56,491 nucleotides of DNA from Mustelus asterias (lineage: Eukaryota): contig NC_135828.1 of the NCBI RefSeq assembly GCF_964213995.1, positions 20,708,001-20,764,491 on the forward strand, read 5' to 3'. A program made the translations under genes and the position numbers. A model generated the notes under the pieces. The model ran no database searches. It saw nothing but the letters and a program-made list of their open reading frames with translations, and was not told the origin of the DNA. Shown piece after piece: positions 3,604-56,491 of this stretch; position 1 is the first letter of the stretch, and each line of letters begins with the position of its first letter.

Positions 3604-3653
3604 TTCGGGGGGGGGGAGGGATCCTGAGTAGTGGGGCTGAAAGTGAGGGATGC

Positions 3654-14890: not shown

Positions 14891-15082
14891 TAAAGTGATC
14901 TTTCAGATGTTGACACGGTGATACTGTGACACCCCCACCCCACCACACCACTGATTTCTACAAATATCTGATTCTTTGCTGTAACGTTACAATGAGCAAA
15001 CCTGCCTCATTATATTACTCTGAAGCCCTTGCTCATGGCTGACTCAAGGGACCATGATCCTGAGCTTGCAACTTTAGACATA

Positions 15083-15219
15083 GGGCTGGATTCTCTGACT
15101 CCGCTCGCAGCCAGGATTCTCCAGTCCCGCTGCAGTGATTGGAGATTTGGCTGAGCACCAAATTCTCCATTCTCACTGGCAGCGGGAGTGGGATGAGAAC
15201 GGCCAGAGAATCCTGGCCG
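15083..15219. mobile_element. MITE-like element
   Basis: ggctggattctctg ... cagagaatcctggcc TIRs. Confidence 0.65.
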
Positions 15220-16149
15220 TAGTTTTTTGTTGAGTGAGCTTTACAGGAATTAAAGATCAAGTTTGCACCCTTCCCACTGCCATTAAGTGTCATAAAGAAT
15301 TCCAACATTGTGTTTTTATTTAATTTATTTGTACTGTTGCAGGTTTGATTATCTTAAGGTATCACCCGTGACAATTCCCTGTGGGCAGGCAAGATCGGAA
15401 AATTTACCTCAAATGTTTATCTAAATTTTCCCACCATAGTGACTATGCTAAAATCTTTCTTGTTTTATGAATGTTAGCAATACATGGGATAAAAACTGAC
15501 AGCTTCAGTTTTTTTCCTATCTGATTTAAAACTCATGAAAAATGCGGTTTTTTAAATTGGCAATAAAATGATTCTTGATTATGTGAATGTGGTGAAGAAC
15601 AGAATATTTGACTGGAGGAAGTGGTTGAGTGCTGGAAAATTGAAATGGAATGATCAGCATTGTAGGTTAATGAGTTTATCCCTGTATGAATCTAATTCAG
15701 ACACTTCGAATGTTTGGAAATACTTGCGAAACTCTAGCTCTTCAGTATCTCTGTGAAGATATTTGTCCCAATTTCATTAGCATTCACCTTGAATGCAAAT
15801 ATGTTGAAAGAAAATCCTCATAAATAATCAAACAACAATAGTTGCTGGTAATTATTTTCAGCTTGTTGATTATTTAAAGGTCTGGTGAACTTTCTTTCTC
15901 CGACGGAAGTGCAGCTTGGACCTATCCTTTGCAGACTGTGATGAAATTGAGATTTCGAACAAAGAATTCTTGTCCTACATATAACATCACATTGGTGTTG
16001 TCTTTCAGTTGTGGCATTAAGATATTGCCACAGGGATCTGAGAATAACTGATTATGTTCCACTATTATAACCTATAAAAACAACTTCATAATAATAAACT
16101 CATTGTGTACTTTTGGTATTTATGAACATTCAATTACATGAATCTATTC

Positions 16150-16480
16150 TAGGTGTGTTTGTGCATGTGTGTGTGTTTTATGTTTATGTATATGTATATG
16201 TGTTTGTATGTATGTGTTTGTGCATGCGCATGTGTGTGTTTGTGTATGTACATGTGTCTGTTTGTGCATGTGTTTTATGTATATATATATATGTTTGTGT
16301 ATGTACATGTGTTTTATGTATGTGTATATATATGTTTGTATGTGCATGTGTGTTTGTGTATGTACATGTGTGTTTGTGTATATGTTGTATGTATATGTAC
16401 ATGTGTGTGTTTGCATGTGTGTATGTGCGCGTGCGTTTGTACATGTGTGTTTGTGTGTGCATGTGTGCACGCATGTGTAC
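16150..16480. repeat. TG/TA-rich degenerate microsatellite
   Basis: Alternating purine-pyrimidine low-complexity tract that generates spurious ORFs in all frames. Confidence 0.95.
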
Positions 16481-17439
16481 TACAAATAATAACCATAAGT
16501 CAATAAAACTTGACTTGGTGATGCTTTTGAAAAGCTATAGTTTTGCAAATATTTTGTTTTGTGAGATAGTGGCTGGAATTCTCTGATCTCGCCCATGGGT
16601 GGGATTCTCTGGTCCCACGGCAGTGATTGGAGCTCTGGCTGAGCGCCAAATCCTCTGTTCTCGCTGGCAGCGATAGCTGGGCGTTGGAGACCAGAGAATT
16701 CTGGCCAGTATGTGGGTCAGTCACATTGCATTCAATGCACATAGCACCACTTTGGAATTGTTAATTTGATCCCTGATTCTTGCAAGGTGTTTTCCAGTTG
16801 TTACAATGCTTGTAATATGCATGACTTTCACTGGCACAACTACTGAATCAGTTCAGCTTCCTGAAACTTTATATTGTATAATATGTGTTGCCAAATATGC
16901 ACCATCAACATGTGACATATTCATTTGGCATTAGTATTTTAACTAAGGGTGGATTTGGATCCACTATCCTTTCAAAGAGGTAGGAGAATGGAAAGAAAGA
17001 CTAAATTTAGTGACAAGAACTATTACCGCCCCAGTCTGAATTTGTTGCTGGTTCTAATAGCAGCCCATTTTCCTCCCATCTATCTTTTCTACACTTCTCC
17101 CCAAGTCTATTAGATGAATCATAGCAGTGGGGACAGTTCATGATGAGAATGAGCCTATAAGGAGATTTGAGAGAGAGGTCTTGGCATAGATCTCCTCACC
17201 TTCTGATTAGTCTTTAGTAGGTAAACAATCTTGACTAAGGCACTCAGTCAGTCTGTTGATCTTGTCTTCAGGGCACTTGAATGCTGCTTCATACCTCTGG
17301 GTGCTACAGCAACGGCCCCATTTCAGCACTGCTGAGTTTCTCCTGGGAGTTGTTGGTGAGCATTCACAGGACATCTGTCCTGAACACCTAACATCCCAAA
17401 CCAGGGGAGCTGAGTCATGATGGGTGAGGTCAGAAGTCC

Positions 17440-18010
17440 TTCAGAGGTAGGTTGAAGAAATCCAATACTCCCTTGCTCTTCTTCAAAATAGTGGATCATA
17501 GGATCCCTAAAGTGCAGAAGGAGGCCATTCGGCCCATCAAGTCTGCACGGACTCTCCAACAGAGCATCCCACCCAGACCCTATCCTGGAGCCACACATAT
17601 TTACCATGACTAATCCTCCTAACCTACTGATCTTTGGACTCGTAAGGGGCAATTTAGCATGGCCAGTCCACCTAACCAACGCATCTTTCAACTATGGGAG
17701 GAAACCAGACCACCTGGACACACAGATGAGGGGAGAACATGCAAACTCCGCATAATCACCCAAGGCTGGAATCGATCCAGGTGGCGCTGTGAGGCAGAAG
17801 TGCTAACCATCTTGCCATCTTTTACATCCGCCTGAGAGGTCAGAGTTAAACGGCTCATCTGAATGATGGCACGTCGCACAGTGATGGCACCTCGCACTGA
17901 ACTTCCTCAGTTCAGCACGGGAGTGTCAATCCAGATTTTTATGTTCATGTTTTGGAGTAGGACTTGAATCCACTGTCTTCTGACTCAGATGAAAGAGTGC
18001 TACAAGCTGC
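17440..18010 (-). mobile_element. Deu-domain SINE (SacSINE1/AmnSINE-like) with nested HE1 SINE (about 17497-17820)
   Basis: ctcttcttcaaaatagtg ... tttacatcc ... ctcatctgaa ... cctcagt Deu core is split by an HE1 copy. Confidence 0.7.
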
Positions 18011-19825
18011 GCTAACAGTTAAAACCAACGGATTTCCTGTATTATTGGCCAAATCCTCAAATGGCCAATTAGCTGTGCATTATGTCGGGAGTAACTGCAC
18101 ATCGTTAGTTAATAGATTCAGCTGTTATAATTATATGCAGCACAAATCCTTTATCTTCTAATTCTACAGTGAATGTTAATCAAGGAAGCTAAAAATCAGC
18201 GCATTGCTAATGATTCGACACATAACACGTCTGACAAGGAAGGCGTCACTCAGTTTCTGCGGAAGAAATTGGTTTCTGATTTCAGTCAACTGTTACATAA
18301 TGTATGGATCTGTTCCTTCCTCTTGCAAGTATAGCCCTATTGAGCTTTCTGAATAGGCTGTACCGTCCAGCTGTATTCTGCAACGTACATCCTGTCCCAC
18401 ACACAAATTCTGGTTAATAAGCCCACGTCTTCCTTTTGCCAACTTCTCACAATGAATACATTACATCTTCTGTTTGGACAGAACCTCCTTAAAGATTCAC
18501 AAAACCAGCATTGAGGGGGAGGGGGAGAATGGTTTAAATTAAATTGAAACACTTTTTAGATTTGGTGAAAGGATAGTGTATTATGCAGAACAATAACATA
18601 ACAATAACTAATGAGGCCAGGAAACTGCAATAAAAAGTGAATATCTGTCGGGTTTTTAAAAAAAAATTCTTTTGCATGACTCCCAGCTGCAGGTTTATGC
18701 GTGTACTTTGATTTTCTTCAAAGTTTTCTTCTTCAGTTAACCAATATTTACACAGAGTGGGAAACTAGTAATCAGGGCGCTGCATGTGTCTGAAATAATA
18801 CATGATGTCACCGGTTCAAAATATAATCCTCAAAAGATCGGTGACAGATCATTTTCCTTCCACGCAACAAGTGATTCAGCCGTCATGACACAGTGAGCGT
18901 GTGATGTGGCTCTTGCTAGTATCTTGACCCCACGCTGAAAGTAAGCAAAGTTGATTTTTCAAACTATTCTCACACATCCCCGGTGAGCCTCTCCATTGGG
19001 GGTCGCGCAAAAAGAAAACCCAGACAATTCTCTGTTTTGTTAACGGCAAATTTTTTTTTTTAAATGTTCAAGTAACATTCCACCAAGGAAAAGACTTCTG
19101 GAATATTAGTACACTAGCAGGACGTGTGACCACAGCATTCGCAGCCCGCATGTGTTCTCAATCTGAACAAATGCTAGCGGCATGATTAGTATTTGGAAAC
19201 CACGAACCAGCAAGCTGGAAAAACAACAGTATTCTCTTAAATTAGGGAGTCTTGTTTTCTCACTGATTGAATGATGAAAACTGGTCCAGGTTCAGTAAAA
19301 TTGCAGGTGTCATCGGCCGTATTAGCCGAACTTGCCAATCGCTCAGCGACAAAGATGAATCTCAGCCGTAGTTACCAATCAAACTTGTGTGGCTTGAACC
19401 AGCAATCTTTCCACTTTCTTGGAGTGGCTGGTAGACATGGAGCAGGACGTGACATTCAAGTTTCCTAAAGCTGTTTTGAGATTTGGGCGATACTGACAAG
19501 GCACGCTTAATACCTGTCATTAGCTGCATTGAAGAGGTGAAAATAGAACTCTTTGAAGTCATATGGTTCTTCTTCAATGGTGTTATGTAGGGAATTCTAG
19601 GATATTTCCCAGCAATAATGAAGGAATACTGATATATGTCCAAATCAAGCTAGTGTAAGACTTGGAGGGGAACTTGTAATGGTGGTCCCCTGCTATGGTT
19701 GCACTTGTCTTTGTCAAACATTGAGATTGTGGGGCTGTGAGGTCAAAATAAGCTTGGTGAGTTGTTATAGTACATCCTATAGATCGTACATGCTGTAGCC
19801 ACAATGTCTGATAATGGAAGGAGTG

Positions 19826-20120
19826 TTTAAAGTTTATTTATTAGTGTCACAGGTAGGCTTACATTAATACTGCAATGAAGTTATTGTGAAAATCTCCTAG
19901 TCGCCACACTCTGGCCGGCGCCTGTTTGGGTGCACTGAGGGAGGGTTTAGCATAGCCAATGTACCTAACCAGTACATCTTCAAGATTGTGGGAGGAGCAC
20001 CCAGAGGAAACCCATGCAGACATGGGGAGAACGTGCAGACTCTACGCAGGCAGTGACCCCCCCGAATCAAACCTGGGTCTCTGGTGCTGTGAGGCAGCAA
20101 TGATAACTACTATACCACCG
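19826..20120 (-). mobile_element. V-SINE, tail type B, inside an older LINE fragment
   Basis: Same head and V-domain as HE1 but ends in ...gtaagcctacttgtgacactaataaataaact-type tail. Confidence 0.8.
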
Positions 20121-21009
20121 AGTGGGTATTGAATCCATTGGCAGGGATGCCAATCAAGTGGACTGTGTTATCCTAGATGGTATCACGTTTACTAAATGTT
20201 ACTGTGGTTGCACACCCAGGTAAGTGGGGAGTATTTCACCTTATACCTTGTAAGTGATGGCAAAGTTTTGAGGGGTCAGGAGGTGAACCCCACACTATCA
20301 AGCGCCCAGCTTGCTGCAGTGTTGATATGGGTACAGTTGAATGCCTGGTCAATGAGATCCCCACCATGTTAAGAGCAAGAGACAGTTAAACCGTGATTTA
20401 GACAACTCCCTACTTCTAAACTTGCCAGTAGTCATCAACTATTGCTGGCAAAATGGTGGTTGTAGCAAATATTTTTCTCAAATAGATCTTGTTAAATCTT
20501 CCCCTCTCCAGCAGTTTGCATTCTATCAGCAGCATGTTTTGAAATATATGTCCTGACTTTTTCAGTCCCCCTAATATTGAAGGAGGCTTACAATTCATTC
20601 CTGTATCACTTGACTATGCAGTCACCATGGGTGGGATTTTCCAGCTGTTCCTGCCAGCGGGATATTCTGGTCCTGTTGATGATGACCCACCACAGGTTCC
20701 CCAGCACGAGAGTATGAGAACAACAGGAAACCCCATTGACAGTGGGCAGGACCAGAAGATCCTGCCGCCGCCAGACAATGGTGGACTATCTCCGTCACCT
20801 CCGAACACACAGTGAAAATCTCCTAGTCGCCACACTCCAGTGCCTGTTCAGGTACACTGAGGGAGAATTTAGCATGGCCAATTCACCTAACCAGCAGAAA
20901 CAGAAGATCCCACCCCAAGTGTCCAGCTCATTGGCACTGTTTTATATTGAAGTTTGGATTAAATTGCCAGTAGCCGAAGCATTTATCAAAAGTACAATGT
21001 ACAGGAAGA

Positions 21010-21440
21010 AAGATCGATCTACATTTATGTAGTGCTTTTACTGACCATTGGATTTCTCCAAGTGTGTTATAGCCAGTGAATTAGTTTTGGAATGCTGTTT
21101 ACAATTTCTGTTGTAATGTAGAAATCCGGCAGCCAATTTGCACACAGTCCCACAAACAGCAATGTGATAACAACCAAATGATCTATTTTTGTGATGTTGA
21201 TTGAGGGGTAAATGTTGGCAGGACGTCAGGTATAACTCTCCTACTCTTCTTCAAAATAGTGCTTTGGGCTCTTTTACATCCACCCAAGAAGGCAGATAGG
21301 GCTTTGGATGGAAGCCTCATCTGAAAGATGGCACTTTCAACAGTGCAGCACTCCCTCAGTACCTTACCGGAGTGTCAGTCTAAGTTTTTGTGCATATGGC
21401 CTGAAGTGGGTATTGCAAATTCAATCTTGTGATACAGAGG
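21010..21440 (-). mobile_element. Deu-domain SINE (SacSINE1/AmnSINE-like), near full length
   Basis: Deu core cagtgcagcactccctcagtac...gtgtcag and tail ggcagccaatttgcacaca...cccacaaacagcaatg. Confidence 0.75.
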
Positions 21441-21469
21441 TTAGAGTGGTAGGTACTCCAATAAATTCA

Positions 21470-21700
21470 CTCTCTTTCTCTCAGTCATTCCGTCTCTCTT
21501 TCTCATTCACTCTCTCTTTCTCATTCACTCTCTCATTTTTTTCCTGCTCTCGATCTTTCTCAACCATTCTCTCTCATTCATTTTCTTTCTCTTTTCATGT
21601 CTTTTCATGCTCTCTCTCTCTCTCTCTCTCTGTCTCACACATTCATTCTCTCCTGTGTGTGCATCTGCCTCTCAGTTTTACCTCTGTCTTTCACTCGATC
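21470..21700. repeat. TC-rich microsatellite/low complexity
   Basis: (TC)n and tctcattcactctc repeats. Confidence 0.85.
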
Positions 21701-21709
21701 TCTGACCAG

Positions 21710-22011
21710 CCATTCAGACCTGAAATGGCCAATCGAGCCTACACCGACAACAATTCCACCCAGGCCCTATCCTCGTACCCAACATATTTACTTTGCTAAT
21801 CCCCCGACACTAAGCAGCAATTTAGCATGGCCAATCCACTTAACCTGCACATCTTTGAAGTGTGCGAGGAAACCAGAGCACCTGGAGGAAACCCACACAG
21901 ATACGGGGAGAACATGCAAACTCCACACAAGCAGTCACCCAAGGCCGGAATTGAACCCAGGTCCTTGGCGCTGTGAGGCAGCAGTGCTAACCACTGTGTC
22001 ACCGTGCCGTG
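21710..22011 (-). mobile_element. HE1-type SINE
   Basis: Full head (gcacggtgacacagtggttagc), V-domain and tail. Confidence 0.85.
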
Positions 22012-22389
22012 CTCATCTTTATTCATTTCTATCTCTTTCTTTCTGCCTTTAAATAAACAAACTGAAAATTGTTTACCGATCAAAACTTGCCTCAAAAAAA
22101 GGTTCCAGGATTCACAATTTCATCATGTTCTGAGGTTTTTGGGAAAGTAAACTTGTAATGATTCCTTCCTGAGGCTCTGGCAGTTTTATTATAGATTTTT
22201 GCCTGCTGGACTTTCTAACACTTGCTCAGACTGCGGCTTTCTGGATATCATCCCTTGAATTTCCAGTGCCAGACCCTCAGCTCTGCAATTGCCTCTGTAA
22301 CCTGCTCCACCTTTCTTTCCCCCTTTAAGACCCTCCTATTTGACCAGGTCTTTAGTCACCTGCCCTGATATCTCTTTATTTGCAGGCAA

Positions 22390-22815
22390 ATTTTGGCCCC
22401 TCCAGAGGAGGACTTTGCAAGGTTTTGTTTTGCTGTTGTCTTTTCCGGTGCCTGGGTCGATGCCAAGTGGTCCGTCCGGTATCATTTCTTTGTTGAGACT
22501 TTGTAGCGATTGATACAACTGAGTGCATTTCAGAGGGCAGTTGAGAGTCAACCACATTGCTGTGGCTCTGGAGTCACATGTAGGCCAGATCAGGTAAGGA
22601 GGACAGATTTCCTTCTCTAAAGGATATTAGTGAACCAGATGGGTTTTTCCGACAATGGTTTCATGGTCTTCAGTAGACTCTTAATTTCAGATATCTTTTA
22701 TTGAATTCAAATTCCACCATCTGCCGTGGTGGGATTCGAACCCAGATCCCCAGGACATTATCTGGGTTTCTGGATTAATAGTCAAGCGATAATACCACTA
22801 GGCCATTGCCTCCCC
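22390..22815 (-). mobile_element. tRNA-derived SINE group 3, long variant
   Basis: Head ggggaggcaatggcctagtgg...ggttcgaatccc; body shared with copies at 29510, 30690, 33619 and 40597. Confidence 0.8.
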
Positions 22816-22894
22816 ATTTGTTTGAACACGCACTTGTGGAGCACCTTGGGGTACTTTACTATGTTAACAGTGTTACATAAATGCAAATCGTTGC

Positions 22895-23215
22895 TCATAG
22901 AATTCCTACAGTGCAAAAGGAGAACATTTGGCCCATCGAGTCTGCACTGACTCTCCAAAAGAGCATCCCACCCAGGCCCCCTCCTCCACCCTGTCCCCAT
23001 GAACCCATGTAAATACCATGGCCAATCCACCTAAACTACACATTTTTGGACACCAAGGGGCAATTTACCATGGCTAATCCACCTAACCTACACATCGTTG
23101 GGCTATGGGAGGAAACCAGAGCACCCGGAGGAAACCCATGCAGACATGGGAAGAACGTGCAAAATCCACACGGTCACCTAAGGCCGGTATAGATCCCGGG
23201 TCCCTGGCGTTATGA
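22895..23215 (-). mobile_element. HE1-type SINE
   Basis: Tail, two 52-bp units and V-domain. Confidence 0.85.
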
Positions 23216-25108
23216 AAGGAGAGGTATAGGCTGGGATTCTCCGATCTCGTTTTCCTCACCGCTGCTGCCAATGATTTTGCCTGATTTTGACCTAGTCAGA
23301 AATCCATTCACTGCAGCGGGACCAGAGAATCTCAGCCGCATGGGAGGTCGGAGAATCCCAGCCATCAACTTTTCCTTGTGGGAAGATGTCCGAGAAGTGA
23401 TCTCTTAAAGTTATATAAGACAGTGAACAGTATGAATAAGCTAAATCTTGAGCTAAAGCTTTAGACTAGATTTAGATGAAGAGAACAGCTTCAAACTAAT
23501 AAAAGGCAAGTTTAGCATTGTCTTCAGAAAGCTTGTCTTACAGAAATGGGAAGTATTAGGAATAGACTCTAAATAGAGTAATAGAAGTGAAAAACAGTTG
23601 GATGTTGCAACGAGGGACGTTCTGGATGGATGAACCAAGATAAGCAAAACTGTCTTTCTCTCGTGTAATTATCTTACGATTTCATGATTTAAAATATTTC
23701 CCTTAAAAGCCCCATTTTAACAGTTCAAGCTGATGACAGGCACTTCCATAACGATTACACTGCCTGTGGTTTGTGAGGCAAATACAAAAACCAAAATGAT
23801 GCAAAACTAAATAAGATTCTGAGCAGTTAATACAGGTGAAAATACAAATCATTGTTACTTGTTTTAATTTACAATATGACACGATGGTGTGTTTTAGTCA
23901 GCATATTCTCTGCAGGAATTTTATATTGCGGCATGTGGCTTTAACAACAGCAGGGCCAAAATGACACTGTTTTGAAGAACACACACACAGATTGCCATGG
24001 AGGTGGACACTAAGCATGGATTACAGAGTTCTTAGACCAGCTGAATGAAATGGCTTCGTGCATTGTTACCAGAAGTTGCTTTGTGATGCAGTTAGAGGTA
24101 ATTTACAACACAAGCCAGCATCTAGGTGGTCCAATGAAATGAATACTTCAATAGATAGACCTAAAAAGGACATGAGGTCATTCACAAGATGATAATCAGG
24201 GGCTGGCATTCAGGCATGATGTCCTCGGGCAAGGACTAAACAAATTGCTGTGATTGATTGGGCTTAAGTCGGGGTGAGGGTAACGCCTGCTGCCTCAGCA
24301 CTTGGGCAGTGAAAAGGCAATTTGGTGAGCAGTACGGCCAACAGCCAAACACAAGGATGAACATATGGGAAAGAGCAGAATGGTGCAGTATGAATACTGC
24401 ACAGATGTGAGTGGAGGTAAGGGAGTCGTTCCATATGGTGCCTTACTGGTCTTCGGTTGGTCATGAATGGCAACAAGCTTCAGCTCAAGACAGCAGAGAG
24501 ATTTACTGTCAGAACTAATGATGGGAGCACGAGGAGCAGAATGTAAGCAGACTGATAAGCTGCTTCTTAGGGGTGACAGGCTGAGTTTCTAAATGCAAAC
24601 TGGGAAATGGACAGCTGTCACGGTTAGGATCATTAGTCCAGTCTTCGACAATGCATCTCTGACACCTTGGTTTAAAGATTTAATGCATACCAGACTGCAA
24701 GAGAACAATATGCCAGGGGTATTGCATTAGAGTAATTATTACCCGTCATACCTCATTAATCTGTTTACCAAATCATTGTGGGGGAGGGGGTGGTGATCAC
24801 TTGACTGATTCGATTGTCATTGAAATTATGCATGGAAAAATCCACTGCAAAACAAAACTATAAATTAATACGTCTTCATCTGAAAACCCAAGGAATCATT
24901 TTTAACAAGCAGTGGTGATTTTTTGAAAAGTAACTGCAATAAAGAGAGCTTTGTTCATTGTAACGCAGTGCCATGATTTCTCATTATCCTCTTTTTGGTT
25001 GGGAGTCATGACAATAATTTAACATCTATTCCTGCCAGGATTCACAAATTGTATTATCATGTCCTTTTGTGCAGTTTAGCTCACTGCATTTAGTTTAATG
25101 TGTTCACG

Positions 25109-25312
25109 TTAGAAATGAGTAATTACAGCATTAAAAAGTGGCTCTTTGGGCCTCTGCGGCAGAAGTATTTTAAAAATATTGCACCAAATGATTAAAATTA
25201 AATTGTCCTGCAAATAATTCCTGTTTGAATATCAACATTTGTTCTATCTGTGTAATAATAATGATGATGATATCCTCAAAGTCCATTGACAAACACTTGA
25301 GAATTTTTGTAC
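25109..25312 (+). repeat. ~205-bp segment duplicated at 26347-26553
   Basis: Direct, diverged copy (ttagaaatgagtaattacagc...cacttgagaatttttgtac). Confidence 0.9.
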
Positions 25313-25319
25313 TTATAAA

Positions 25320-25390
25320 TTTTGATTTGATTTATTATTGTCACATGGATTAGTATGCAGTGGAAAGTATTGCTCCTTGCGCGCTATAAT
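25320..25390 (-). mobile_element. Rex1/Babar LINE extreme 3' fragment
   Basis: Reverse complement matches 46690-46760, including the (tcaaa)n tail. Confidence 0.75.
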
Positions 25391-26142
25391 ATTTTTGATC
25401 AAAGCATTTAGCGATTCGGTATTTAAAAAGTCAAATTCACTGTGTTGCACCAACAAGATCTGTTTGTGGTATGCTTATTGAAAGGATTGTTGGCTGCATT
25501 GTCTTCTCAAGCATGAGTTAATCTGATATATTCCATCTCATACCCAAACGTGGCTTATGTTTGTCAGTAGCCGCATTTCAACACATTGTTGAGCAGCACA
25601 AAGCAGATCTCGTGCTGACAAAGCGTTCATCCCAATTCACTTACATGCTTCCCATTCAGCCCCATTCAATTCGAAAATTATAAGGAAACTGCAAACTGGT
25701 GATCGCTTAAATCATTAACTCAATTGTGCACCTTCCAGGCACGTTGAGAACCGACTTCTTGACCAAAGCGATTTTGTCAGGCAGTCTGCTGGTAACAAAA
25801 ATTATCGTGTTACTATCTGATAAGAATTCAACTTTAAAAGATGACTCCATCCCAAAGTTTTTTAGTGAATAATAGCAGTTTTTCAAAACAAATTGTATGC
25901 CATAGGAATGTTAAGGCAAATAACAAAAGCAAATGTGAAAATCATGTAATGGCGGGAATTCTCTGACCTCGTCCAGGGCTGGGATTCTCCAGTCCCCTGA
26001 TACGAATGGAGATTTGGCTGAGCGCCAAATTCTCCATTCTCACTGGCAGCGATAGTGGGGCGTACAACATCTGAGAATTCCAATACCTATCATATCATGA
26101 CACATCTGGCAATTATAATGATCCAAAATAAAGCAGTGTTTT

Positions 26143-26633
26143 AGTTTATTTATTTGTGTCATGAGTAGGCTTACATTAACACCACAATGAAATTATTGTG
26201 AAAATCCCCAAGTCGCCACACTCGGGCGCCTGTTTGGGTACACTGAGGGAGAATTTAGCATGGCCAATGCTCCTAACCAGCACATCTTTCGGACTGTGGG
26301 AAGAAACCAGAGCACCCAAAGGGAACCCACGCAGAGACAGGTTACATTAGAAATGAGTAATTACAGCATTAAAAAGTGGCTCTTTGATCCTCTGGGCCTT
26401 TGCGGCAGAGATATTTTACGAATATTGCACCAAATGATTAAATTGAAATAAATTGTCCTGGAAATAATTCCTGTTTGAATATCAACATTGTCTGTGTAAT
26501 AATCATGATGATATCCTCAAAGTTCATTGACAAACACTTGAGAATTTTTGTACGTGCAGACTCCACACAGACAGTTACCCAGGTCCCTGGTGCTATGAGG
26601 CAGCAGTGCTAACCACTGTGCCACCATGCTGCC
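26143..26633 (-). mobile_element. V-SINE tail type B carrying a ~205-bp insertion of local DNA
   Basis: SINE halves flank 26347-26553. Confidence 0.85.
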
Positions 26634-27644
26634 TATTTAGTGTAACTCTAACGCTAACCCTAGCGTAACTAAATAGAAAGTGTAGTATTCACATTCTAAC
26701 ACCAAACAAAGAGGTATATCATTGTGAGTGCAGTCATTTGGGACACGATTGACAATTGAATGTTAGCTATATTTACACACCAATAAAATGAGTAATTTAA
26801 TCATATTGTAGTTTGCTGAAATATTTCAGGAGACTGATATGCCGCAACGACATGATGTAACTTGCTTTAGTACAGAAGCGACAAAACTGTTGATTGCAAG
26901 TTTTTAAAAAAAACAGAAGGGCATTCCTTTTCCTCATTTGCAAAGACCTAAGAGTGTGCCAAACAAAGAAGGGAATCTTTTCTGTCACAATATGGCTCAT
27001 GGCCTTTAAACTCTCCATCTGTTTGTCTGACAAGTAATCAAAGCTCGTGGCAGGAACTGGCAGCACTTTGACGGCCCTTCTCACTTTCACTGGAGTGAGA
27101 GTAATTTGAACAGATTCATCGTTTCTTCCTTGATTGTATACCAGTGATGGGTTAGCTATGATTTTTTTTTTTTACTACTGAGTATTTTTGTGTTTGATTA
27201 ACATAGCATGAAATGAGCACAGACACTTTGGAACCCCGGTTATATTCTTTAATCAGTCAATTGCCCAGAGGGACATTTAACGTGTTACGCGGTTATTTTT
27301 AACTGCTGTTTTAATTAAAATATAAACACTGTGAGGTGCAATTATTTGAAATTAAACTCTTGCTGAGTGACTCTGAGCTACATATGTACCCGTATGTAAA
27401 TACTTACATGGTTGCACTTCCGTTCCGATTGAAAGGGTTCAAATTGTAATCAGCTTCATTTGGGAGCTCTAGTGAAATCTCTTGCATATGCTGTGATATC
27501 AGGATAAAGTTGTGTTTCCTGTTAATAATGCTAATACACATCGTGCCATATTTCCACATCAGAAAAAGATTGGACATAAAGCCTGACCCACATCAAGCAT
27601 CCACATTTATTATTTACTATTGTGTTGTGCAAAGATTCCAAGCG

Positions 27645-27927
27645 TTTAAGTTTATTTATTGGAGTCACAAGTAGGCTTACATTAACATTGCAATTAAGTT
27701 GCTGTGGAAATCCCCTAGTTGCCACACTCCGGCGCCTGTTCGGGTACACTGAGGGAGAATTTAGCATAGCCAATGCACCTAACCAGCACGTCTTCCGGAC
27801 TGTGGGAGGAAACCCACACAGACATGGGGAGAACGTGCAGACTCCACACAGTCACCCAAGATCGGAATTGAACCCAGGTTCCTGGCACTGTGAGGCAGCA
27901 GTGCTAACCACTGTGCTACTGTGCCAC
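27645..27927 (-). mobile_element. V-SINE tail type B
   Basis: Head, V-domain and type-B tail. Confidence 0.85.
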
Positions 27928-28060
27928 CTTACTTACATTTAAATTAGGACTCGTCACACTGACGTAAAACGTTGCAAATTTAAAATGAAAATTCACGAAA
28001 CAGCAGACCATTAACATGTCATGACTAATTTTTTTCTCTTTTCCAAATGCTGGTTATTTT

Positions 28061-28362
28061 GGGGCGGCAAGATGGCATTGTGCTTAGCACTGCTGCCTCA
28101 CAGCGCCAGGGATCCGGGTTCGATTCACGGCTTGGGTCACCGTCTTTGCACGTTCTCCCTGTGTCTGCATGGGTTTTCTCTGACTGCTCCAATTTCCTCC
28201 CACAGTCTGAAAGACATGCTGGTTAGGTCTATTGGCCGTACTAAAATTCTCCCTCAGTGTACCCAAACCGGCGCCGGAGTGTGGCGACTAGGGGATTTTC
28301 ACAGTAACTTCATTGCAGTGTTAATGTAAGTCTACTTATAACACTAATAAACTTTAAACTTT
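28061..28362 (+). mobile_element. V-SINE tail type B, inverted relative to the copy about 130 bp upstream
   Basis: ggggcggcaagatggc head; taataaactttaaactt end. Confidence 0.85.
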
Positions 28363-29057
28363 TTTCCAACATTTTTCATTCCCATTTTGCACTATATTAA
28401 TGTAATAACAATGAATAAGCATGTGCAAACTCATGCACAATCAGCAGTGTTGTGGCATTGCATCATTGCTCCTGGTGATTGCAATGTAATGAAATCCTAG
28501 CAAATTAAAACCTGCGAAATGATTAATAGGTTCATGCAATGTGAACCATGGACAGCCACTTAGCAGAGGAAATATCAGATTGTTATAAATAAAAGTGCTA
28601 AATGAAGCTATTGTTAAGACAAATGGAATGTATTTAACTTTGAAATATGGTATTTGCTGCCAAACCTTTTACTTGTGCGAGAAGCATGTAAAGAAGCAGC
28701 TTATGAATTTGGTGTACGAGGGAGCAAAGATTCTGGGGAGCAGAATCAGATTTTCAAACCAGATTGAAATGCATTTTTTCTGTGCGTTGTGTGCGTGCGT
28801 GCATTGTGTGTGTATACAGAACCTGAGTATTGCTGAAAAAGTCCACTTGCCAACCAATCAGCTCTCTTCTCTTCTCATACACTATCAATTTGTTGTTTCC
28901 CCTGACATTGATATTTTTGTGACCTGTCCTGAAAAGTGTGAGAGGGCCTGTTCCTGTGCTGTACTGTTCTATTTTCTAAAAGGGCACCTTTTTCAGCAGT
29001 ACGCAACTTTGTTAATTAACTATAGACAGATGCAAGAGATTATGTTAAAGCTGGAAA

Positions 29058-29376
29058 CAGGCGACACAGTAGATCAGCACTGTTGCCTCGCAGTGCCAGG
29101 GACCTGGGCAGGGACCTGGGTTCAATTCCTGGCTTGGGTCACTGTCTGTGTGGAGTCTGCACGTTTTCCCCGTGTCTGTCTGGGTTTCTCCCGGGTGCTC
29201 TGGTTTCCTCCTACAGTCCGAAAGACATGCTGGTTTAGTGCATTGACCATGCTAAATTCTCCCTCAGTGTACATGAACAGACACTGGAGTGTGGCGACTA
29301 GAGGATTTTCACAGTAACTTCATTGTAGTGTTAATGCAAGCCTACTTGTGACACTAATAAATAAACTTAAAAACTT
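29058..29376 (+). mobile_element. V-SINE tail type B
   Basis: Same architecture as the other type-B copies. Confidence 0.85.
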
Positions 29377-29507
29377 ACACCTTGATGCTCTGAAATCCAG
29401 TTTAGTTTATCATTCGTACAAGGGTTAATATTTCTTTCTACCTACTTAGGAAATCATTGGTACGGGTATATTGTAAAGAAGGCTAGATTGTGTACTGTTG
29501 CTTGCTC

Positions 29508-29852
29508 AGGGTAGCAGTGGCATAGTGGTATCGTCACTGGACAAGTAGTCCAGAAAGCCAGAGCAAGATTTGGGGACCTGGGTTCAAATCCTCTCACGGC
29601 AGATGGTGAAACTTGAATTCAATAAAAATCTGGAATTAAAAGTCTAATGATGACCATGAAACCATTGTCAATTGTTGGAAAAACCCACCTAGTTCACTAA
29701 TGTCCTTTAGAGAAGGAAATCTGCCATCCTTACCTGGTCTGGCCTACATGTCACTCCAGTATCACTGCAATGTGAAATGGAGGGCACTTGGGGACAGGCA
29801 ATAAATGCTGGCACAAACTGCGATGCCCACACCCCACAAATGAATAAAAAAA
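29508..29852 (+). mobile_element. tRNA-derived SINE group 3
   Basis: A/B boxes, shared body, and aataaatgctggc...tgaataaaaaa end. Confidence 0.8.
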
Positions 29853-30385
29853 TTTCCTGATTGCAGAATATATCATTGCACGTTTACACACCACAGACAT
29901 TACTGGTCACCTATCCATGTTAGATATTCATTGTCGTAAGATGCCTATGTACCAACAGGTAGATTACAATTGTCTTTTGCTACTTCAGGTAGCACGGTGC
30001 TTAGCACTGCTACCTCACAGTGCCAGGGACGCGGGTTCGATTCCCAGCTTGGGTGACTGTGTGGAGTTTACACGTTCTCTCCTTAAAGCTATGTCTTTGA
30101 CCAATCTTTTGGTCATTTGGCCTAATATTTCCTTGTATAGTTCGTTGTCAACTTTTGTTTGACAATGCGTGTATAGTGCTGTGGGAAATTTTATTATGGT
30201 AAAGGTGCTATATGAATGCAAGTTGTTATTCTCGAAGACTTTCATTAACCTGCGAGTTTAGACAACGCTTATTAATTCTCCAGATTTATTTTGTGATTTG
30301 TTGCATCATCAACATTTCTCACTTTATATTATTGAATTGCAGCCACTAATAGATATCCATTGTGTCACTTTTGTATGTAAATATT

Positions 30386-30583
30386 GGCTGGGATTTTCCA
30401 GCAATTCCCACCAGCAGGATCTTCCAGTCCCGCCATTGCAGGTTCCCTGGTGATGGAGGTTGTGAAAAGCAGGAAACCCTGTTGACAGTGGTGGGACTGG
30501 AAGGTCCTGCTGCCAGTCAATGGCGGGCCACCTCACCACCACAAAACACGCCACTGCAGTGGCAGGGAGGGAAATCCTGCCCA
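30386..30583. mobile_element. MITE-like element, ~200-bp subfamily (also about 20629 and 52085-52290)
   Basis: ggctgggattttcc ... ggaaatcctgcc TIRs with internal palindromy. Confidence 0.6.
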
Positions 30584-30689
30584 ATGTGTACGTATAAAAA
30601 ATGTGAATAAAATCAAAAAAAGGAACTAAACCAATGTGGTATCCAAAACAAATTAACTGAAAGCTAAACCTTGCTGATAGTGACCCCGT

Positions 30690-31292
30690 TGCCTAGTGGT
30701 ATTATCGCTAGACTACTAATCCAGACTATTAATCCAGAAACTCAGCTAATGTTCTGGGGACCCAGGTTCGAATATCGCCACAGCAGATGGTAGAATTTGA
30801 ATCCAATACAAAAGAATGTCTGGAATTAGGAATCTGCTGATGACCATGAATCGATTGTTGGAAAAACCCATCTGGTTCACTCATGTCCTTTAGAGAAGGA
30901 AATCTGCCGTCCTTATCCAGTCTGGCCTACATGTGACTCCAGAGCCACATCAATGTGGTTGACTCTCAACTGCCCTTTGAAATGGCCTAGCGAGCCACTC
31001 AGTTTCAAGCATCTAGCAATGGGCAATAAATGTTGTGATGTGGAGATGCCGGCGTTGGACTGGGGTAAGCACAGTAAGAAGTCTCACAACACCAGGTTAA
31101 AGTCCAACAGGTTTATTTGGTAGCAAATACCATAAGCTTTCGGAGCACTGCTCCTTTCGTAGGAGCAGTGCTGCGAAAGCTTATGGTATTTGCTACCAAA
31201 TAAACCTGTTGGACTTTAGCCTGGTGTTGTGAGACTTCTTACAATAAATGTTGGCCAGCCAGCGAGGCCTTTGTGCCACGAATGAATAAAAA
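30690..31292 (+). mobile_element. tRNA-derived SINE group 3 interrupted by a Penelope-like palindrome
   Basis: SINE sequence resumes after 31242 with a duplicated target. Confidence 0.8.
31036..31242. mobile_element. Penelope-like element terminal palindrome (82-bp arms)
   Basis: Arms 31074-31155 and 31161-31242 with 2 mismatches; TSD CAATAAATGTTG at 31024-31035 and 31242-31253. Confidence 0.75.
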
Positions 31293-31510
31293 TAAACAAA
31301 GTTGACCATGAAAGAAACTTAAGTAGGAATAAAAAGCAATCTAAACTAAATTTTGTAAAAAAGAAATGCTGCAAGTAGTAGTTGCAAGTAATAATGTTAT
31401 GACCGGCAATTCCACTGCTGTGCACCATTTTTCCCTAGGTCACATTCATCTAAAGTGCAGGAGCAAACACGTGCAGATTGTAATTTTGTTATTTCTCTTT
31501 TTCCAACAAG

Positions 31511-31747
31511 GGTCGCTGCATAAACTTCACCAGGGTGAAGGAAAATGAAACCCCGCCTCCTTCGTGCAACGCTCCTGCCTCGCACATGCCGCCACCTCAC
31601 AACGAATACATCCCGCTGGCCTGTGAACTTCCCAGTCCTCCTGCTTTGTCCGCCCAGTCATGCGCGAGGAGCCCACCGCCTGGACCACCACCGTCTCGCG
31701 CACCCCCTCCTTCACGACCTCCCCCTCGCCCTGCGCTGAGAACCTGA
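31511..31747 (+). CDS. ANTXR1: ANTXR1-like terminal coding exon (GRCINFTRVK...SRAPPPSRPPPRPALRT*)
   Basis: T/C tract + aag acceptor ending at 31510; GRCINFTRVK and the Pro-rich RAPPPSRPPPRP tail are typical of ANTXR1 rather than ANTXR2; TGA at 31745-31747. Confidence 0.93.
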   Translation, partial: GRCINFTRVKENETPPPSCNAPASHMPPPHNEYIPLACELPSPPALSAQSCARSPPPGPPPSRAPPPSRPPPRPALRT

Positions 31748-50923: not shown

Positions 50924-51353
50924 AACCTCAATGTGTTGAATAGTCTTTTCCCAACCTTGCGTTACATTTTCTTTTATCTGAATTAAGGATGAGCTGTGTT
51001 AGAAATGGGTGACAACCCACAAAATAAAACAGATTAGCAAAGCAATTTACTCTCTCATTTTAAAAAAAAACACAAAGAATTATTATAAGAAAGCGGGGGA
51101 CTGTGACAATGGAAGTATTATTGAAAGTGGGAGTGTTTGCTGTTTAAACCTACTGTACAAAAACATGTTTCCAAGGGTAAACATGTGTATTTTGTTATCA
51201 AAACATAGTGGCGGTGAGACTAATGTATCCAGCTTTATCTACATAAAATATTATGCTTCTACATGAGTCGCTGTAACTAAATCAGGTTCTACACCATATT
51301 CCAACATTACTTTCAGTTGGGTAGGCAGGTCTCACCGCTTAAAGCAACGCTGA

Positions 51354-54133
51354 TCATTCCGCAGTTACTGACTTAGCCATTATCCCTTGGACAGTCTCGC
51401 TACAGGGAGAATGGACAAAGCATGAATTTAACTCAGGGCATTTAAATGAGTCACAGCTATGGAGATAAGAAACAAAAATATTACATTTGGCATCCGAGAC
51501 TGCTAGCCATTTCGCTTTGTTGTGAGAAGGCGCTTGGGATTGCCTGTGACAATAATTGCACGTCTTTACATTTAAAAAAAAAGAGAGGGTCGACTCTTTC
51601 GCTGCAATTAAAATAACGTAACTGATTGACTACTCATCGCAGAAGTACAACCGGGTGGAATTGGAAAAGCAAATCCTGTCTGAAACCTGAAATTCTCCTA
51701 ATTGCTTGCTCAAGTTGTCAGTTGTCATGTTAGTTCAAGGTTGGTTTTCATAAGGTTGAGACAATCGTATGGATTCCATTGCCGCCAAGCTCCGACCAGC
51801 TGTTCAAGTCTAGAGAGTTTATGGTAAAACATGGGGGTGACAGTGCAGGAAATAGTGATATTCCAGCCCTCTGCACATACAAAGAGCGGGGGGGGAGAGG
51901 GGAAATCCACTGTGACTGAAGGATTAGTGTTCAGAATCTAGAGGGTGAAGCTGCTCTATGCTTTCGTTTTGTTTTAGGCCTGTACTTGATATTCTGTTTT
52001 TTCTTCCCTAGTTGGTTGAGGGTTGTTTGCCAGTTCCCTTCCCGCAGGTTTGATACAGTATCTGTGCAATCTGCAGATACTGAGCGGGATTCTCCAGTCT
52101 CTCAGCCGTGCGTTTCCCGCCGGCGGGAGGTGGAGCGTAGTTTGCTAGCGGTGGGATTCTCCTGTCCCGCCGCTGTCGATGGGAATTCCCGTTGACGTCA
52201 CCCCACGCTGGCGGGAAACCCGCGGGCGGGGGGTGCGCTGCTGACGGGACCAGAGAATCCCGCCGGTGTGAACGGCTGAAGAATTCCGACCGAGGTGCCA
52301 TGAACATTTTTTGCAAAGAGTCCTCCAATGCAAGTTAAAGTACGGTGCTGTTTTAGTTTAGTGTCTCGGATGTTTCAACACTGGATTATGTTTTGATGTG
52401 GTTACACCATACCTTTCAGCTAATTAGCCTCATTAGTCGTGTTGGAGCTACTGGGGGGTTGACGTGAGGGTTGGGGGGTGTGCGTGTGGGGGCGTTGGCG
52501 GGGTGGAGGGGGGGCGGGTTGGTGGTTGCACAGTATACTAATGCCTAAATAGAAACTTCAAACTATTGCTCGGGGTTTTAAAATGGAGTAGGCATTAAAG
52601 TTCAGCATCGAACTCTACCGATGGCAGTGACGTGTTATTTGAAGTCGCTATTGTTGATTATTCGAGACCTTTTCTATTTCAGTCAGACGGAGAGAACCCA
52701 ACAAAAGCTCCAGCACACCTGCGTAACAGAACTTCACTTTGTTTCACCGACTCGCCAGGCCTTTGAAGTTACTGCCAGTGCCTGTAAAGTACCCAAGAGA
52801 GATTTGAGACAATTGGCAGCAACCAACGCCACTTTGCCCCCTGGGGTATTTCATGCTACTATTGGGCAATGGGCAGATGATTAAAAATGGCCAAAGACGT
52901 GCATTAAAGGTTTGAAAACAGAGGAATGAAGTTCCAATAAAATCGACGGCCAAAATGATTTTCTTTGGCCATCGCACAGAAATGAAAAAAAAATTCCATT
53001 CTAGCTTTATATTATATAATCATCAGAGGGGGGCCATTCGGCCCATCGAGCCTGCACCCACTCTCCAGCAGAGCACCTTACCCAGACCCTATCCCCGTAT
53101 CTATCCCCCTAATCCCCTTAATTTACACATCTTGGGACACTAAGGGGCAATTCTAGCATGGCCAGTCGACCCAACCTCACATCTTTGGAGACAAAAGGGC
53201 AATTTAGCATGGCCATTCCACCTAATCTGCACATCTCTGGACTGTGGGAGGAAACCGGAGCACCCGGAGGAAACTCACACAAACGCAGGGAGAATGTACA
53301 AACTCCACGCAGACAGTGACCGGAGGCCGGATTCAAACCTGGGTCCCTGGCGTTGTGAGGCAGCAGTGCTAACCACTGTGCCACCGTGCTGCATTTGAAC
53401 TTGCTAACGAGTTACTGCCAAACCTCTTATCCCTTTCGCTATAGCGACTGAAATGCTGCCGGATTGATACTATGTTTAAAGAAAGATTCCTCCCCTGGTA
53501 AAGCTTGCTTATAGAACCAAAATAACCCGAAGGTTCACATCAATGTGTCAAAGCTGAGGAACTCCAGACTCCTATTAAATGAATTGATTTTCCAAAGCAG
53601 AATATAAATTATGAAATACTGATGGTGCTTTGTTGCATGAAGCGGAAACATCCTACGATTCAGCGTGAAAATAAGCTTTCCAATGAAGTGGACATTCTCG
53701 TTGCCACCTACATGGGGAAGGAGCACGTGTGATGATCCATTTTCTGAGTATCTCCAGATGGAATCTATGGGCATTGTTGCTTGGATCGAAGACGTCCAGG
53801 CTAAGGATAGTTCAGTCGGGGCGGGGGTGGGGACGGGCACTTTGCCAGTAGAAGGAATGTAGGGATCACAGAATCGTGGAATCCCTACAGTGCAGAAGGA
53901 GGCCATTCGGCCCATCGGGTCCACGCTGTCGTGTTTCAAAAAGGCTGGGGAGGTTGACTCTTGCCTCCCTCAGTTGGGCGTAACTACAAGATGCTTAGTT
54001 GTGATCAGTGACGGAGCTCATCACAAGTCAATTCTTGTAATCGCGATGGGCTTCCTCCCCGTGAGTTTCTTTTTCTGACTATCACGGGAAGACAAGTGGC
54101 TGAGGTGCTCGGAACCCGCTTTGCTGTCAGCAG
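51354..54133 (-). pseudogene. Decayed GFPT-like (glutamine:fructose-6-phosphate amidotransferase) pseudogene, C-terminal ~60%
   Basis: Last exon at 51399-51354 reads RDCPRD[+1 nt]MAKSVTAE* versus GFPT VD(C/F)PRNLAKSVTVE*, behind a ctccctgtag acceptor. Weaker collinear remnants lie upstream: ADSKAGS, ATCLPV, SSVTDH, VLS..EIEKVS, VTAIGR, TCLEDSLQKM, YLQIAQIL..AGRELANNP, LEQLVGAWRQWNP. Confidence 0.7.
53025..53390 (-). mobile_element. HE1-type SINE inserted in the GFPT relic
   Basis: Full architecture. Confidence 0.85.
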
Positions 54134-54568
54134 CTAGCACCAAATAGAACTTCCTGCTAACGATAGATAGCCATTAGTTGTGTGGAAATGGTATCTTTGT
54201 TACTGTAATGGTTTTAATGGGGTCCACGAGGTGGGCCTCTTAGAATATGAGCTCCCTGATTGAGGCAGTTAATGCTGTCTAATCCGGGAGCCCTGCAGGG
54301 GTCTATAATGTGGAGCGTCCAGGTTACTCAGGGTGTGTACTCTGTTCTGGAAGTGCCTGTGTTACTAACTATTGTGACTAAAACTGGATTTGGTGAAGGG
54401 ACACGTGGAGGTTATTTCGGTTTCGGTGGGTTGAGATATTGGATGGTGGATAATGGTGACACCGTGAACGTGATCACCTTTAATGGCGCTTCAACAGAAC
54501 AAAACTGGCTCATTTCCAAGCCCAGGGTGACAGGTCAACCATTTATTATCATCTGTGCTAAAAGACCA

Positions 54569-54910
54569 CGGGCGGGATTCTCCAGCCGCGCTCACCTGAA
54601 AACCATAGATTCCTGCCCGACTTCAATGGACCTCGGCCCACTCTCCCCCACCCTCTCCCACCACCCCCCCTCCCCCCCCCCCCCCCCACTCCCCCAACCT
54701 CCCCCCGGCCCTTTAGAATTCCAGTGTCAGGCGGGACGGGAGAATCCCGGCCAACGTTGCCTATTGCAGTCTGAAGGTCGGATTCTCCTACCTCCCCCGC
54801 AGCTGGGATTCTCCAGTCCCGCTGCAGTGCACGGAGATTTGGCTGAGCGCCGAATTCTCCATCCTCGCTGGCAGTGGTGGAAGGGCATGAACGGCCGGAG
54901 AATTCCGGCC
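54569..54910. mobile_element. Two MITE-like elements; the first contains a poly-C tract
   Basis: gggcgggattctcc ... ggagaatcccggcc, and ggtcggattctcc ... ggagaattccggcc. Confidence 0.65.
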
Positions 54911-54946
54911 TAAATATGGAATGACCCTGGCAAGCTGCCATTTAGT

Positions 54947-56030
54947 TGTTGTGATATCGCTTTAAGGGAAATGAGCACGTACCCAGGATGTAAAACAGTA
55001 TGTGACCAGCATCCTGCAGCTGGTGGGGGGGGGGGGGGGGGGGGGGCGGGCAGTTGTAGCTGTGCTGACTCAGTGAATAGCAGTCACTGAATCGGTAAAG
55101 TAGCTCGGTCTGCTGAGCCAACATCTCATTAAATAAATCGAACCAATGTACAGTTTACCAGTCCTGGTGTGAGATTGATGCATTTGTGTAAAGCGGACAC
55201 AGAAACATAACATGGTGGCAGCGATGCGAGCACAAAGACTAGAGGAGGAGCCACAGGCATGGTTTGGGGCAGTACTGAGACCATATGGGCAGTCAAACCT
55301 CGGGAGGCCAAGCCCTTCGACAGACAGTGCCCTGCCTAATGGGTGGATATTTGGTTTATGGAATAGTCGGACGGGCGGTTAATGGGAGCCAAAAGGATGG
55401 CTGCCACAGGTCACCTGACCACAGGGTTGGCATTTTGTTTTGGGAGCTACCATCAGGAAATACAAGAAGAAAATAACCCTCCCTCAGCTTGTGGAATCTC
55501 ACACCTCATTGTACAGGCCCCTTGCAATCAACACAAGCAGAGCAAATGCAGGCAAACTGGCTCCCCAACCTGAACTATCACAAAAGACTGAAATTGAAAC
55601 TCACTATACTGGAAAATATACTAATAATCACCTGTCTCTCTCCTGAGAAGGAATAATGGAATTTTGACCAGAGGCACAGAAACTGATTGTTAAGCTACAA
55701 TTAACCATTAGTGTGACATGTCACAGGACTCAAGCCTCTGGTCTTTCTGGGCAATCTTAACATAGCATCTTTAGCCTCATAAATAGTCTGCTATATAACA
55801 TCCAATTGGTGGACCACCAAGGAGCCGACTTCCAGGCAGAGCAACAGCCTGCCCCTCAAAGCCTAACTCTGCTGGAAGATTTCTTACTATCACCTGCAGA
55901 ACTCTGTGCCATCGCCTACCCTCGCCTAGTCTCTGTGTACCTGCTTCATCTTGTGGTAACAGCATCAAGTGGAAAGCAAACTCTACAACTCTAGTCTTGA
56001 ACCAGCTAAGCTCAGACTCCGATATGAAAG
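54947..56030 (+). mobile_element. Gypsy-type LTR retrotransposon relic: 5' LTR (54947-55212), PBS and decayed interior
   Basis: LTR starts TGTTGTG and ends CATAACA with an internal AATAAA, immediately followed by PBS TGGTGGCAGCG; the later FLLSPAEL resembles an integrase C-terminal motif. Confidence 0.6.
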
Positions 56031-56044
56031 AATTGCTGATTGGA

Positions 56045-56412
56045 CTCTTTAGACATAGCTCTTGGGATTAAAGGAATCAAGGGATATGGGGGGAAGGATG
56101 GATCAGGACTATTGAGTTGGATGATCAGCCATGATCGTAATGAGTGGTGGAGCAGGCTCGAAGGGCCGAATGGCCTACTCCTGCTTCTAGTTTCTATGTC
56201 TCTATTATCTCATTGCTGTTTGTGGGAGCTTGCTGTGCACAAATTGGCTGACACATTTCCTTTACACTTGTACTAATTTCTTCTTGAAATCAAACAATGT
56301 TTTGGCCTCAACTACATTCTGTGGGAGTGAGTTCCACACATTCACCACCCTCTGGGTGAAGAAATTTCTCCTCACCTCAGTCCTAAAAGGTTTACCCCGC
56401 ATCCTCAAACTA
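56045..56412. mobile_element. CR1 3' fragments in both orientations plus a Deu-SINE tail piece
   Basis: + strand tail gggccgaatggcctactcct; - strand FRTEVRRNFFTQRVVNVWNSLP. Confidence 0.8.
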
Positions 56413-56491
56413 CTCTTGAAATCATGTGAACTAATATTTATTTCTGTAGTTCTTGTAATGTTACCATCCATAGTTGTAAACCTCCATTATC

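Follow-up and report, generated by a model that had tools for sequence, protein, structure and literature searches.

An orphan GFPT terminal exon and, 30 kb from it, an intact third GFPT gene with a different ending in the shark Mustelus asterias

The orphan exon and the intact gene beside it

The stretch analysed here, 56,491 nucleotides of the shark Mustelus asterias (NC_135828.1, positions 20,708,001 to 20,764,491; hereafter the window, on the contig that we call C69), contains the 3′ coding exons of an ANTXR paralog and, on the opposite strand, a 46-bp relic of a GFPT gene (Table 1). GFAT, the enzyme encoded by GFPT genes, is the first enzyme of hexosamine synthesis. The relic corresponds to the canonical last exon of GFPT with a frameshift. 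At 51399-51354, the minus strand shows ttctccctgtag and then, beyond the splice boundary, CGA GAC TGT CCA AGG GAT A ATG GCT AAG TCA GTA ACT GCG GAA TGA; re-reading it upholds the sequence-only reading that preceded this work, which had recognized a GFPT C terminus with a 1-nt insertion at this site. Read from the first AG, the exon yields RDCPRDNG and a stop, and from a second AG, 4 nt on, TVQGIMAKSVTAE and a stop. Branch-point-like words lie upstream of the acceptor (by eye, within 51400..51460), and the acceptor sits at the canonical phase-0 intron position, which bears out the unprocessed origin favoured earlier.

The pattern GCNAARTCNGTNACNGYNGARTRA matches three sites in the 3.68-Gb genome, namely the final exon of one GFPT gene each on contigs C16 and C22, and the relic, while its reversed control has no match in the same 3.68 Gb; the chance of a match on one strand of 31.4 kb is ~2e-6, for a pattern picked after the exons had been seen. 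When both strands of 256 kb were scanned for the canonical last exon, with frameshifts allowed, the relic came out on top (score 55; runner-up 38), and it is the sole AKSVT within the 256 kb around the third GFPT gene described below, on the same strand and downstream of it. When the 54 exons of the three GFPT loci were compared with 40 kb by blastn, the last exon gave a weak match (E 0.015), not above chance or repeat matches. The 501-bp region holding the relic is single-copy by DNA search, and 117 of 117 sampled words are present in sequencing runs X1 and X2, possibly the source sample. The relic also lies within a single contig (50973-51940) of organism D (run X13; ~4% diverged), which differs from the window by 38 substitutions and 9 gap letters. 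The listing covers every gap letter, and none falls within the exon, so that the 1-nt insertion is common to both organisms and is unlikely to be an assembly error.

A search of the genome with TIGR01135 identified three multi-exon GFPT loci, on C22, C16 and the window's own contig C69. GFPT1 and GFPT2, which were expected elsewhere in the genome, are indeed there, as C22 groups with GFPT1 and C16 with GFPT2 in our tree. The C69 gene, here called GFPT3, has 18 located coding exons, all open and with normal splice sites, its short ATG exon not having been located; the exon boundaries match those of GFPT1, and our rough model equals the database protein P0124 (XP_078055776.1, "GFPT1-like") at 678 of 684 columns. 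The C16 and C22 genes end in VD(F/C)PRNLAKSVTVE, and C69 is the only one of the three loci without this canonical tail. Its replacement last exon, VDDNKRLRKVEADYVPM followed by a stop, lies at G000:C69:20789720-20789667, ~1.06 kb after the penultimate exon, with an AATAAA 1.2 kb past the stop, and the two listed database isoforms both end in this new tail. The search for further GFPT exons beyond the window, proposed in the sequence-only reading, led to an intact gene, but one with a different terminal exon. Of the lost third vertebrate GFPT which that reading had envisaged, the paralog stands, and the relic probably belongs to it; the loss does not, since an intact copy lies 30 kb beyond the relic. 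The gene is already annotated automatically, as GFPT1-like or GFPT1.

Table 1. Features of the locus, in window positions unless a contig is named
Feature	Position	Strand	Remarks
Orphan canonical GFPT terminal exon	51354..51399	minus	46 bp, 1-nt insertion, 4/14 residues changed
3′ splice site, intact-looking	51400..51460	minus	Pyrimidine tract + TAG, at the phase-0 position of GFPT1/GFPT2
Possible constrained stretch	51295..51558		1 substitution in 264 bp vs 37 in the remaining 704 bp of this contig (organism D)
Gap between relic and GFPT3, window part	51400..56491	minus	Full gap 30.3 kb
Region of the claimed upstream remnants	51410..54200	minus	No GFPT signal above chance; repeats 52088-52264, 53023-53398, 53865-53926
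GFPT3	G000:C69:20789667-20858887	minus	Outside the window, same strand as the relic, nearest exon ~25 kb past the window end
Convergent ANTXR paralog, 3′ coding exons	9312..31747	plus	PF05586 exons 9312-9479 and 11675-11770; last exon ~31511-31747

The relic is a single orphan exon rather than a lost gene. A series of matches at 54133-51770 had been taken for upstream GFPT exons, but they align at the level of shuffled sequence, and these 2.8 kb hold no detectable remnants. In a spliced, frameshift-aware alignment to 51410-54200, GFPT3, GFPT1 and GFPT2 scored 54, 69 and 78; these scores were reached by 24, 13 and 10 of 25 dinucleotide shuffles and by 50, 27 and 6 of 50 genomic control windows (50 of 78 were used), respectively. 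No collinear GFPT alignment beating shuffles was obtained beyond the last exon. Remnants decayed by 0.2-0.4 substitutions per site would have been detected, because simulated relics of the five invoked exons scored 402-626 at 0.2 and 136-229 at 0.4; at 0.6 they scored 75-132, overlapping the shuffles. The segments YLQIAQIL and TCLEDSLQKM border the repeat at 52088-52264, and the TCLED stretch has an indel at 52306 in three of four related organisms, in a comparison that covered the best 40 of 229 substitution rows and the best 12 of 55 indel rows. The 30-kb gap between the relic and GFPT3 likewise yielded no further exon remnant, 17 GFPT exons scoring 25-46 there and 28-40 on the control strand; the highest of these scores (46) falls within a repeat, as does an exon-6-like match at ~58983, past the window end.

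GFPT3 across vertebrates and its replaced tail

The new tail is found in sharks, rays, a chimaera (P0148), the coelacanth (P0081) and a lungfish (P0157), and with the coelacanth tail as query, 16 of 17 candidates were recovered, each from a cartilaginous fish, the coelacanth or a lungfish. The forecast that intact copies might exist in other chondrichthyans therefore proved correct, and it extends to two lobe-finned lineages. Among 230 proteins of 380-900 residues, 51 hold six to nine of nine GFPT3-diagnostic residues, and the next best hold three. New tails terminate 42 of these 51 GFPT3-type proteins and canonical tails none, the other nine having different ends, eight of which resemble read-through of the last intron. 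Some GFPT3-type proteins come from organisms with incomplete names; those cluster with chondrichthyan representatives. In a tree of 27 rows with the tails removed (one row being a fragment of a chimaeric sturgeon model), nine new-tail proteins form one clade (100/99) that is joined to GFPT1 at 100/99; GFPT1 and GFPT3 each contain sharks and bony fish, with cyclostomes outside. The cluster representatives and the best 120 matches provide weak evidence that GFPT3 is missing from ray-finned fish and tetrapods.

Compared with vertebrate GFPT1 (GFAT1; GlmS family, TIGR01135), GFPT3 has the same exon boundaries, the same ANTXR and NFU neighbours and the same catalytic and ligand residues outside the tail, and P0124 is 78-79% identical to caecilian and coelacanth GFPT1. 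It differs in nine near-fixed changes in the body, including G440R, A477V and Y564F, in the replacement of the C-loop (residues 670-681) by a 17-residue exon, with loss of Thr679 and gain of three C-terminal residues, and in the old exon lying 30 kb downstream. The RefSeq "GFPT1-like" entries of chondrichthyans, Latimeria XP_005992489.1 and Protopterus P0157 are GFPT3 itself and its orthologs, but their names do not set them apart from GFPT1 as a paralog of their own. Coelacanth P0081 and chimaera P0148, both GFPT3, bear the plain name "GFPT 1", likely a misnaming; the coelacanth protein with a canonical tail is a separate one, P0219. As a side observation, the bird GFPT1 models P0191, P0194, P0196 and P0198 end in GYDVDRIAASRD rather than in the canonical tail; this may be a further case of an alternative last exon or an artefact of annotation.

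The replaced segment is one with described functions. According to PMC7000685, the C-loop (670-681) forms a cover over the sugar pocket and connects the enzyme's two active sites; its Lys676 is relevant to catalysis, its Thr679 takes part in glutamine hydrolysis, and even C-terminal tags disturb GFAT activity. PMC10087520 and PMC3224219 have the GFPT tail close the isomerase site and join in the ammonia channel, and in Candida, signalling between the domains depends crucially on the last four residues; on GlmS channel mutants, our literature search found nothing. We compared the residues listed in PMC7000685 across nine GFPT3 rows. Identical in all nine are the glutaminase residues Cys2, Arg95, Trp96, Thr98, His99, His108, Asn123 and Gly124, the isomerase residues Lys558, Glu561, His577 and Lys676 together with the sugar-phosphate site (Lys676 being placed by ungapped register after Asp667), and Gln310, Arg343, Gly355, Thr447, Thr458, Gly461 and His463 of the uridine diphosphate N-acetylglucosamine (UDP-GlcNAc) feedback site. 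There are two exceptions among the listed residues: Thr94 is Ile in two rays, and Asp667 is Asn in the lungfish.

In the tail itself, the canonical C-loop PRNLAKSVTVE, present in 0 of the 51 GFPT3-type proteins, is replaced by DNKRLRK(V/I)EA(D/E)Y.., the lungfish tail extending further than the others. In ungapped register, V668, D669, L674 and K676 are kept, the changes include A675R, V678E and T679A, and three residues are added, so that Thr679 and the VTVE end are lost. As a tentative prediction from these alignments, which might equally turn out otherwise, GFPT3 would be a folded enzyme and still bind fructose-6-phosphate, since the listed residues outside the tail and Lys676 are kept, and its transfer of ammonia from glutamine to the sugar would be weakened or rewired, given the loss of Thr679 and the VTVE end and the three residues gained. 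An AlphaFold2 prediction of P0124 from 26 rows reached a mean predicted local distance difference test (pLDDT) score of 51, and below 50 in the tail (667-684), and was not used. The new tail (G000:C69:20789667-20789720) also contains KRLRK, present in 43 of 43 fetched new-tail proteins, which were counted by that very motif, and this we take to resemble a basic nuclear-localisation motif.

The duplicated neighbourhood

The order of a BMP9/10-class gene, ANTXR, GFPT and NFU is identical on C69 and C22; the blocks of GFPT1 and GFPT3 are a duplicated BMP9/10-ANTXR-GFPT-NFU neighbourhood, which may stem from the vertebrate genome duplications or from a large segmental duplication. The ANTXR gene in the window is an ANTXR1-type paralog convergent with the relic, in agreement with the tail-to-tail arrangement described before; its last exon encodes an ANTXR1-type proline-rich tail and aligns to the last exon of the C22 ANTXR gene. 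Exact GFPT tail motifs were absent from the 30 kb beside a third ANTXR gene, on C1. BMP3/GDF10-class and BMP9/10-class genes lie ~130-150 kb before the window (G000:C69:20555101-20578571; loci L111, L106 and L092), an arrangement that presumably resembles the human GDF10-GDF2-ANTXRL region; the window's ANTXR may be an ANTXRL ortholog. For the C69 BMP9/10-class gene, the score with BMP10 slightly exceeds the one with GDF2.

Two NFU1-type (PF01106) genes lie upstream of GFPT3 and GFPT1, at G000:C69:20880321-20880494 (L042) and G000:C22:69534168-69534341, respectively. A second NFU paralog seems to be retained in this shark, by comparison with the single NFU gene of humans. Within the window, an exon-like stretch in unique DNA on the plus strand (44876-44935), placed after a pyrimidine tract and an AG, encodes DVTKNFHSGPAQSQEQPH and a stop; it could serve the ANTXR paralog as an alternative last exon, or be a chance occurrence. 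The window also holds a long interspersed nuclear element (LINE) on the plus strand (2623-6473), with a 326-residue frame and a 964-residue endonuclease/reverse-transcriptase frame; it is CR1-like by eye and apparently young.

Origin and meaning of the orphan exon

Ten of the 14 residues of the relic equal those of this genome's GFPT1, and 8 of these 10 use a different codon (against a background of 177/325 between GFPT1 and GFPT3), so that the relic is not a recent GFPT1 copy; relative to GFPT2, the codon differs at 5 of 9 shared residues. The relic carries the C of the GFPT1-type tail (DCPR), in line with the GFPT1+GFPT3 clade. Changes affect about 5 of its 27 non-degenerate sites, whereas a comparison of GFPT1 with GFPT3 gives 1.19 substitutions per fourfold site; since neutral decay from the duplication onwards would leave so few changes with P=0.01-0.02, the relic appears to have been constrained for much of that time. 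The contig of organism D shows no substitution in 51295-51439 and one in 51295-51558 (scan P=0.0012; Fisher P=1e-4 with the window chosen afterwards), where 30 of the 38 substitutions are listed and the remaining 8 are assumed to lie near the contig ends, the list being ranked by depth. This comparison gives a hint that the region around the relic may be under constraint.

Taken together, we consider it probable that the relic once served GFPT3 as its terminal exon and was then displaced; this intact gene now ends differently, and its enzyme may couple its two sites differently. An event later than the GFPT1/GFPT3 duplication but older than the split of cartilaginous from bony fish would have duplicated the last exon of GFPT3. 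The proximal copy would then have diverged, keeping its splice phase and V668, D669, L674 and K676 in register, and taken over, while the distal canonical copy probably remained a coding, alternative last exon for long before it was frameshifted; it is now probably non-coding, perhaps kept through a regulatory or splicing role. The absence of any other exon remnant from the 30-kb gap favours such an exon swap over a tandem gene.

Several observations weigh against this scenario. The homology between new and old exon rests on 4 of 14 identities, and the sequence flanking the relic resembles the flanks of the GFPT1, GFPT2 or new exons no more than shuffles do (the best score was reached by 3 of 60 shuffles). 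No GFPT3 isoform has a canonical ending, and no transcript, in this shark or in any relative, links the relic to GFPT3, as none of 258 fetched proteins carries either reading of it. The constraint signal comes from one organism, with the window chosen afterwards, and drops to P=0.075 for the exon and acceptor alone. Regarding GFPT3 itself, nine of the same 51 proteins had supplied the nine diagnostic sites, and the tree was midpoint-rooted, without an invertebrate outgroup.

Could the relic still be spliced, as a live minor alternative last exon of GFPT3? The second AG would restore the frame, giving TVQGIMAKSVTAE with the catalytic Lys, the Thr and the final Glu one residue closer, and the first would give the short dead tail RDCPRDNG. 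The intact pyrimidine tract and AG speak for this, as do the in-frame product that results when the +1 insertion is combined with the second AG, 4 nt on, the single difference from organism D across the exon, the acceptor and ~160 bp upstream (regulated exons typically have conserved intronic flanks) and a variant poly(A) word, AGTAAA, 302 nt downstream. We nevertheless regard it as unlikely: neither tail occurs in the 258 proteins, both listed isoforms end in the new tail, the gene has its AATAAA 1.2 kb after the stop of the new exon, and DCPR is preserved in the old frame and not in that of the second AG. An origin as the last exon of a deleted tandem GFPT between GFPT3 and ANTXR, with a canonical tail and perhaps kept as a regulatory element, would account for long coding constraint without alternative splicing, and exon remnants that outlive their genes are described in PMC2831330. 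It is less probable again, however, because both the 30-kb gap and the 2.8 kb upstream lack another remnant, where exons as decayed as the relic (~0.2 per site) would score >400, and because the 27 tree rows include no fourth GFPT clade.

Still further from likely is a transposed or retroposed 3′ fragment of GFPT1 or GFPT2 that landed here by chance. LINE machinery can move short fragments, but the relic has a splice acceptor at the canonical intron position, its synonymous sites are as distant from GFPT1 as those of GFPT3 are, its 3′ flank resembles neither GFPT1 nor GFPT2, and it stands on the right strand directly behind the one GFPT gene without this exon. The processed origin that the sequence-only reading kept as its alternative founders on the same acceptor, the codon differences at 8 of 10 shared residues and the lack of flank likeness. 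That reading itself proposed that a third GFPT had been lost and had left a unitary pseudogene of several exons at 51354-54135. It was right about the terminal exon and about the existence of a third GFPT lineage, yet we give this proposal the least credence of all. The third GFPT is intact 30 kb away (C69:20.79-20.86 Mb), the upstream matches score at shuffle level with no collinear decayed exons, the hinge of GFPT3 is CKGVKANC and not the invoked GKDKKGS, and in the three intact genes the corresponding exons stretch over ~30-40 kb rather than 2.8 kb. The proposal is largely refuted, as only remnants beyond ~0.6 substitutions per site could escape detection.

Under the exon-swap history that we prefer, the locus has parallels in known systems. 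Alternative last exons arise by exon duplication, and here, too, two same-phase terminal exons would stand behind one penultimate exon; the difference is that an active-site loop was swapped and the distal exon is frameshifted. The exonic remnants left after genome duplication, as treated in PMC2831330, are likewise lone exons recognisable after their coding role was lost, with a hint of non-coding constraint, but there the host gene is lost, whereas here it is intact with a replacement exon, and a regulatory role is predicted only. Our literature search found no description of a third vertebrate GFPT, of the tail swap or of the orphan exon, subscription papers and supplements, which may hold a tree with a GFPT3 clade, lying outside its scope; in their accessible parts, PMC13188829 mentions gfpt2 only and PMC11136554 no GFPT, and a "GFAT3" match in PMC5785516 is a citation artefact.

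A wider proposal, which we hold to be doubtful, is that the third GFAT of jawed vertebrates swapped, by exon duplication, an active-site lid that bacteria and humans have in common. It would so have become a catalyst or regulator of another kind (uncoupled from glutamine, for instance, or using free ammonia), kept for >450 million years in fishes that make or retain urea, with the old lid persisting downstream as a frameshifted but still constrained switch exon. Sharks, rays, chimaeras, coelacanth and lungfish make or retain urea. The link of GFPT3 to such fishes is a correlation only.

The relic alone is a small curiosity, and the significance of the locus rests with GFPT3. The orphan exon likely records how the tail swap happened. 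Some "GFPT1" annotations, such as coelacanth XP_005992489.1 and chimaera XP_007902783.1, are actually GFPT3, and the picture of vertebrates as having two GFPT genes is revised by it. As a natural paralog with a replaced loop, the new loop being nearly unchanged from sharks to lungfish, GFPT3 offers a ready test of loop function.

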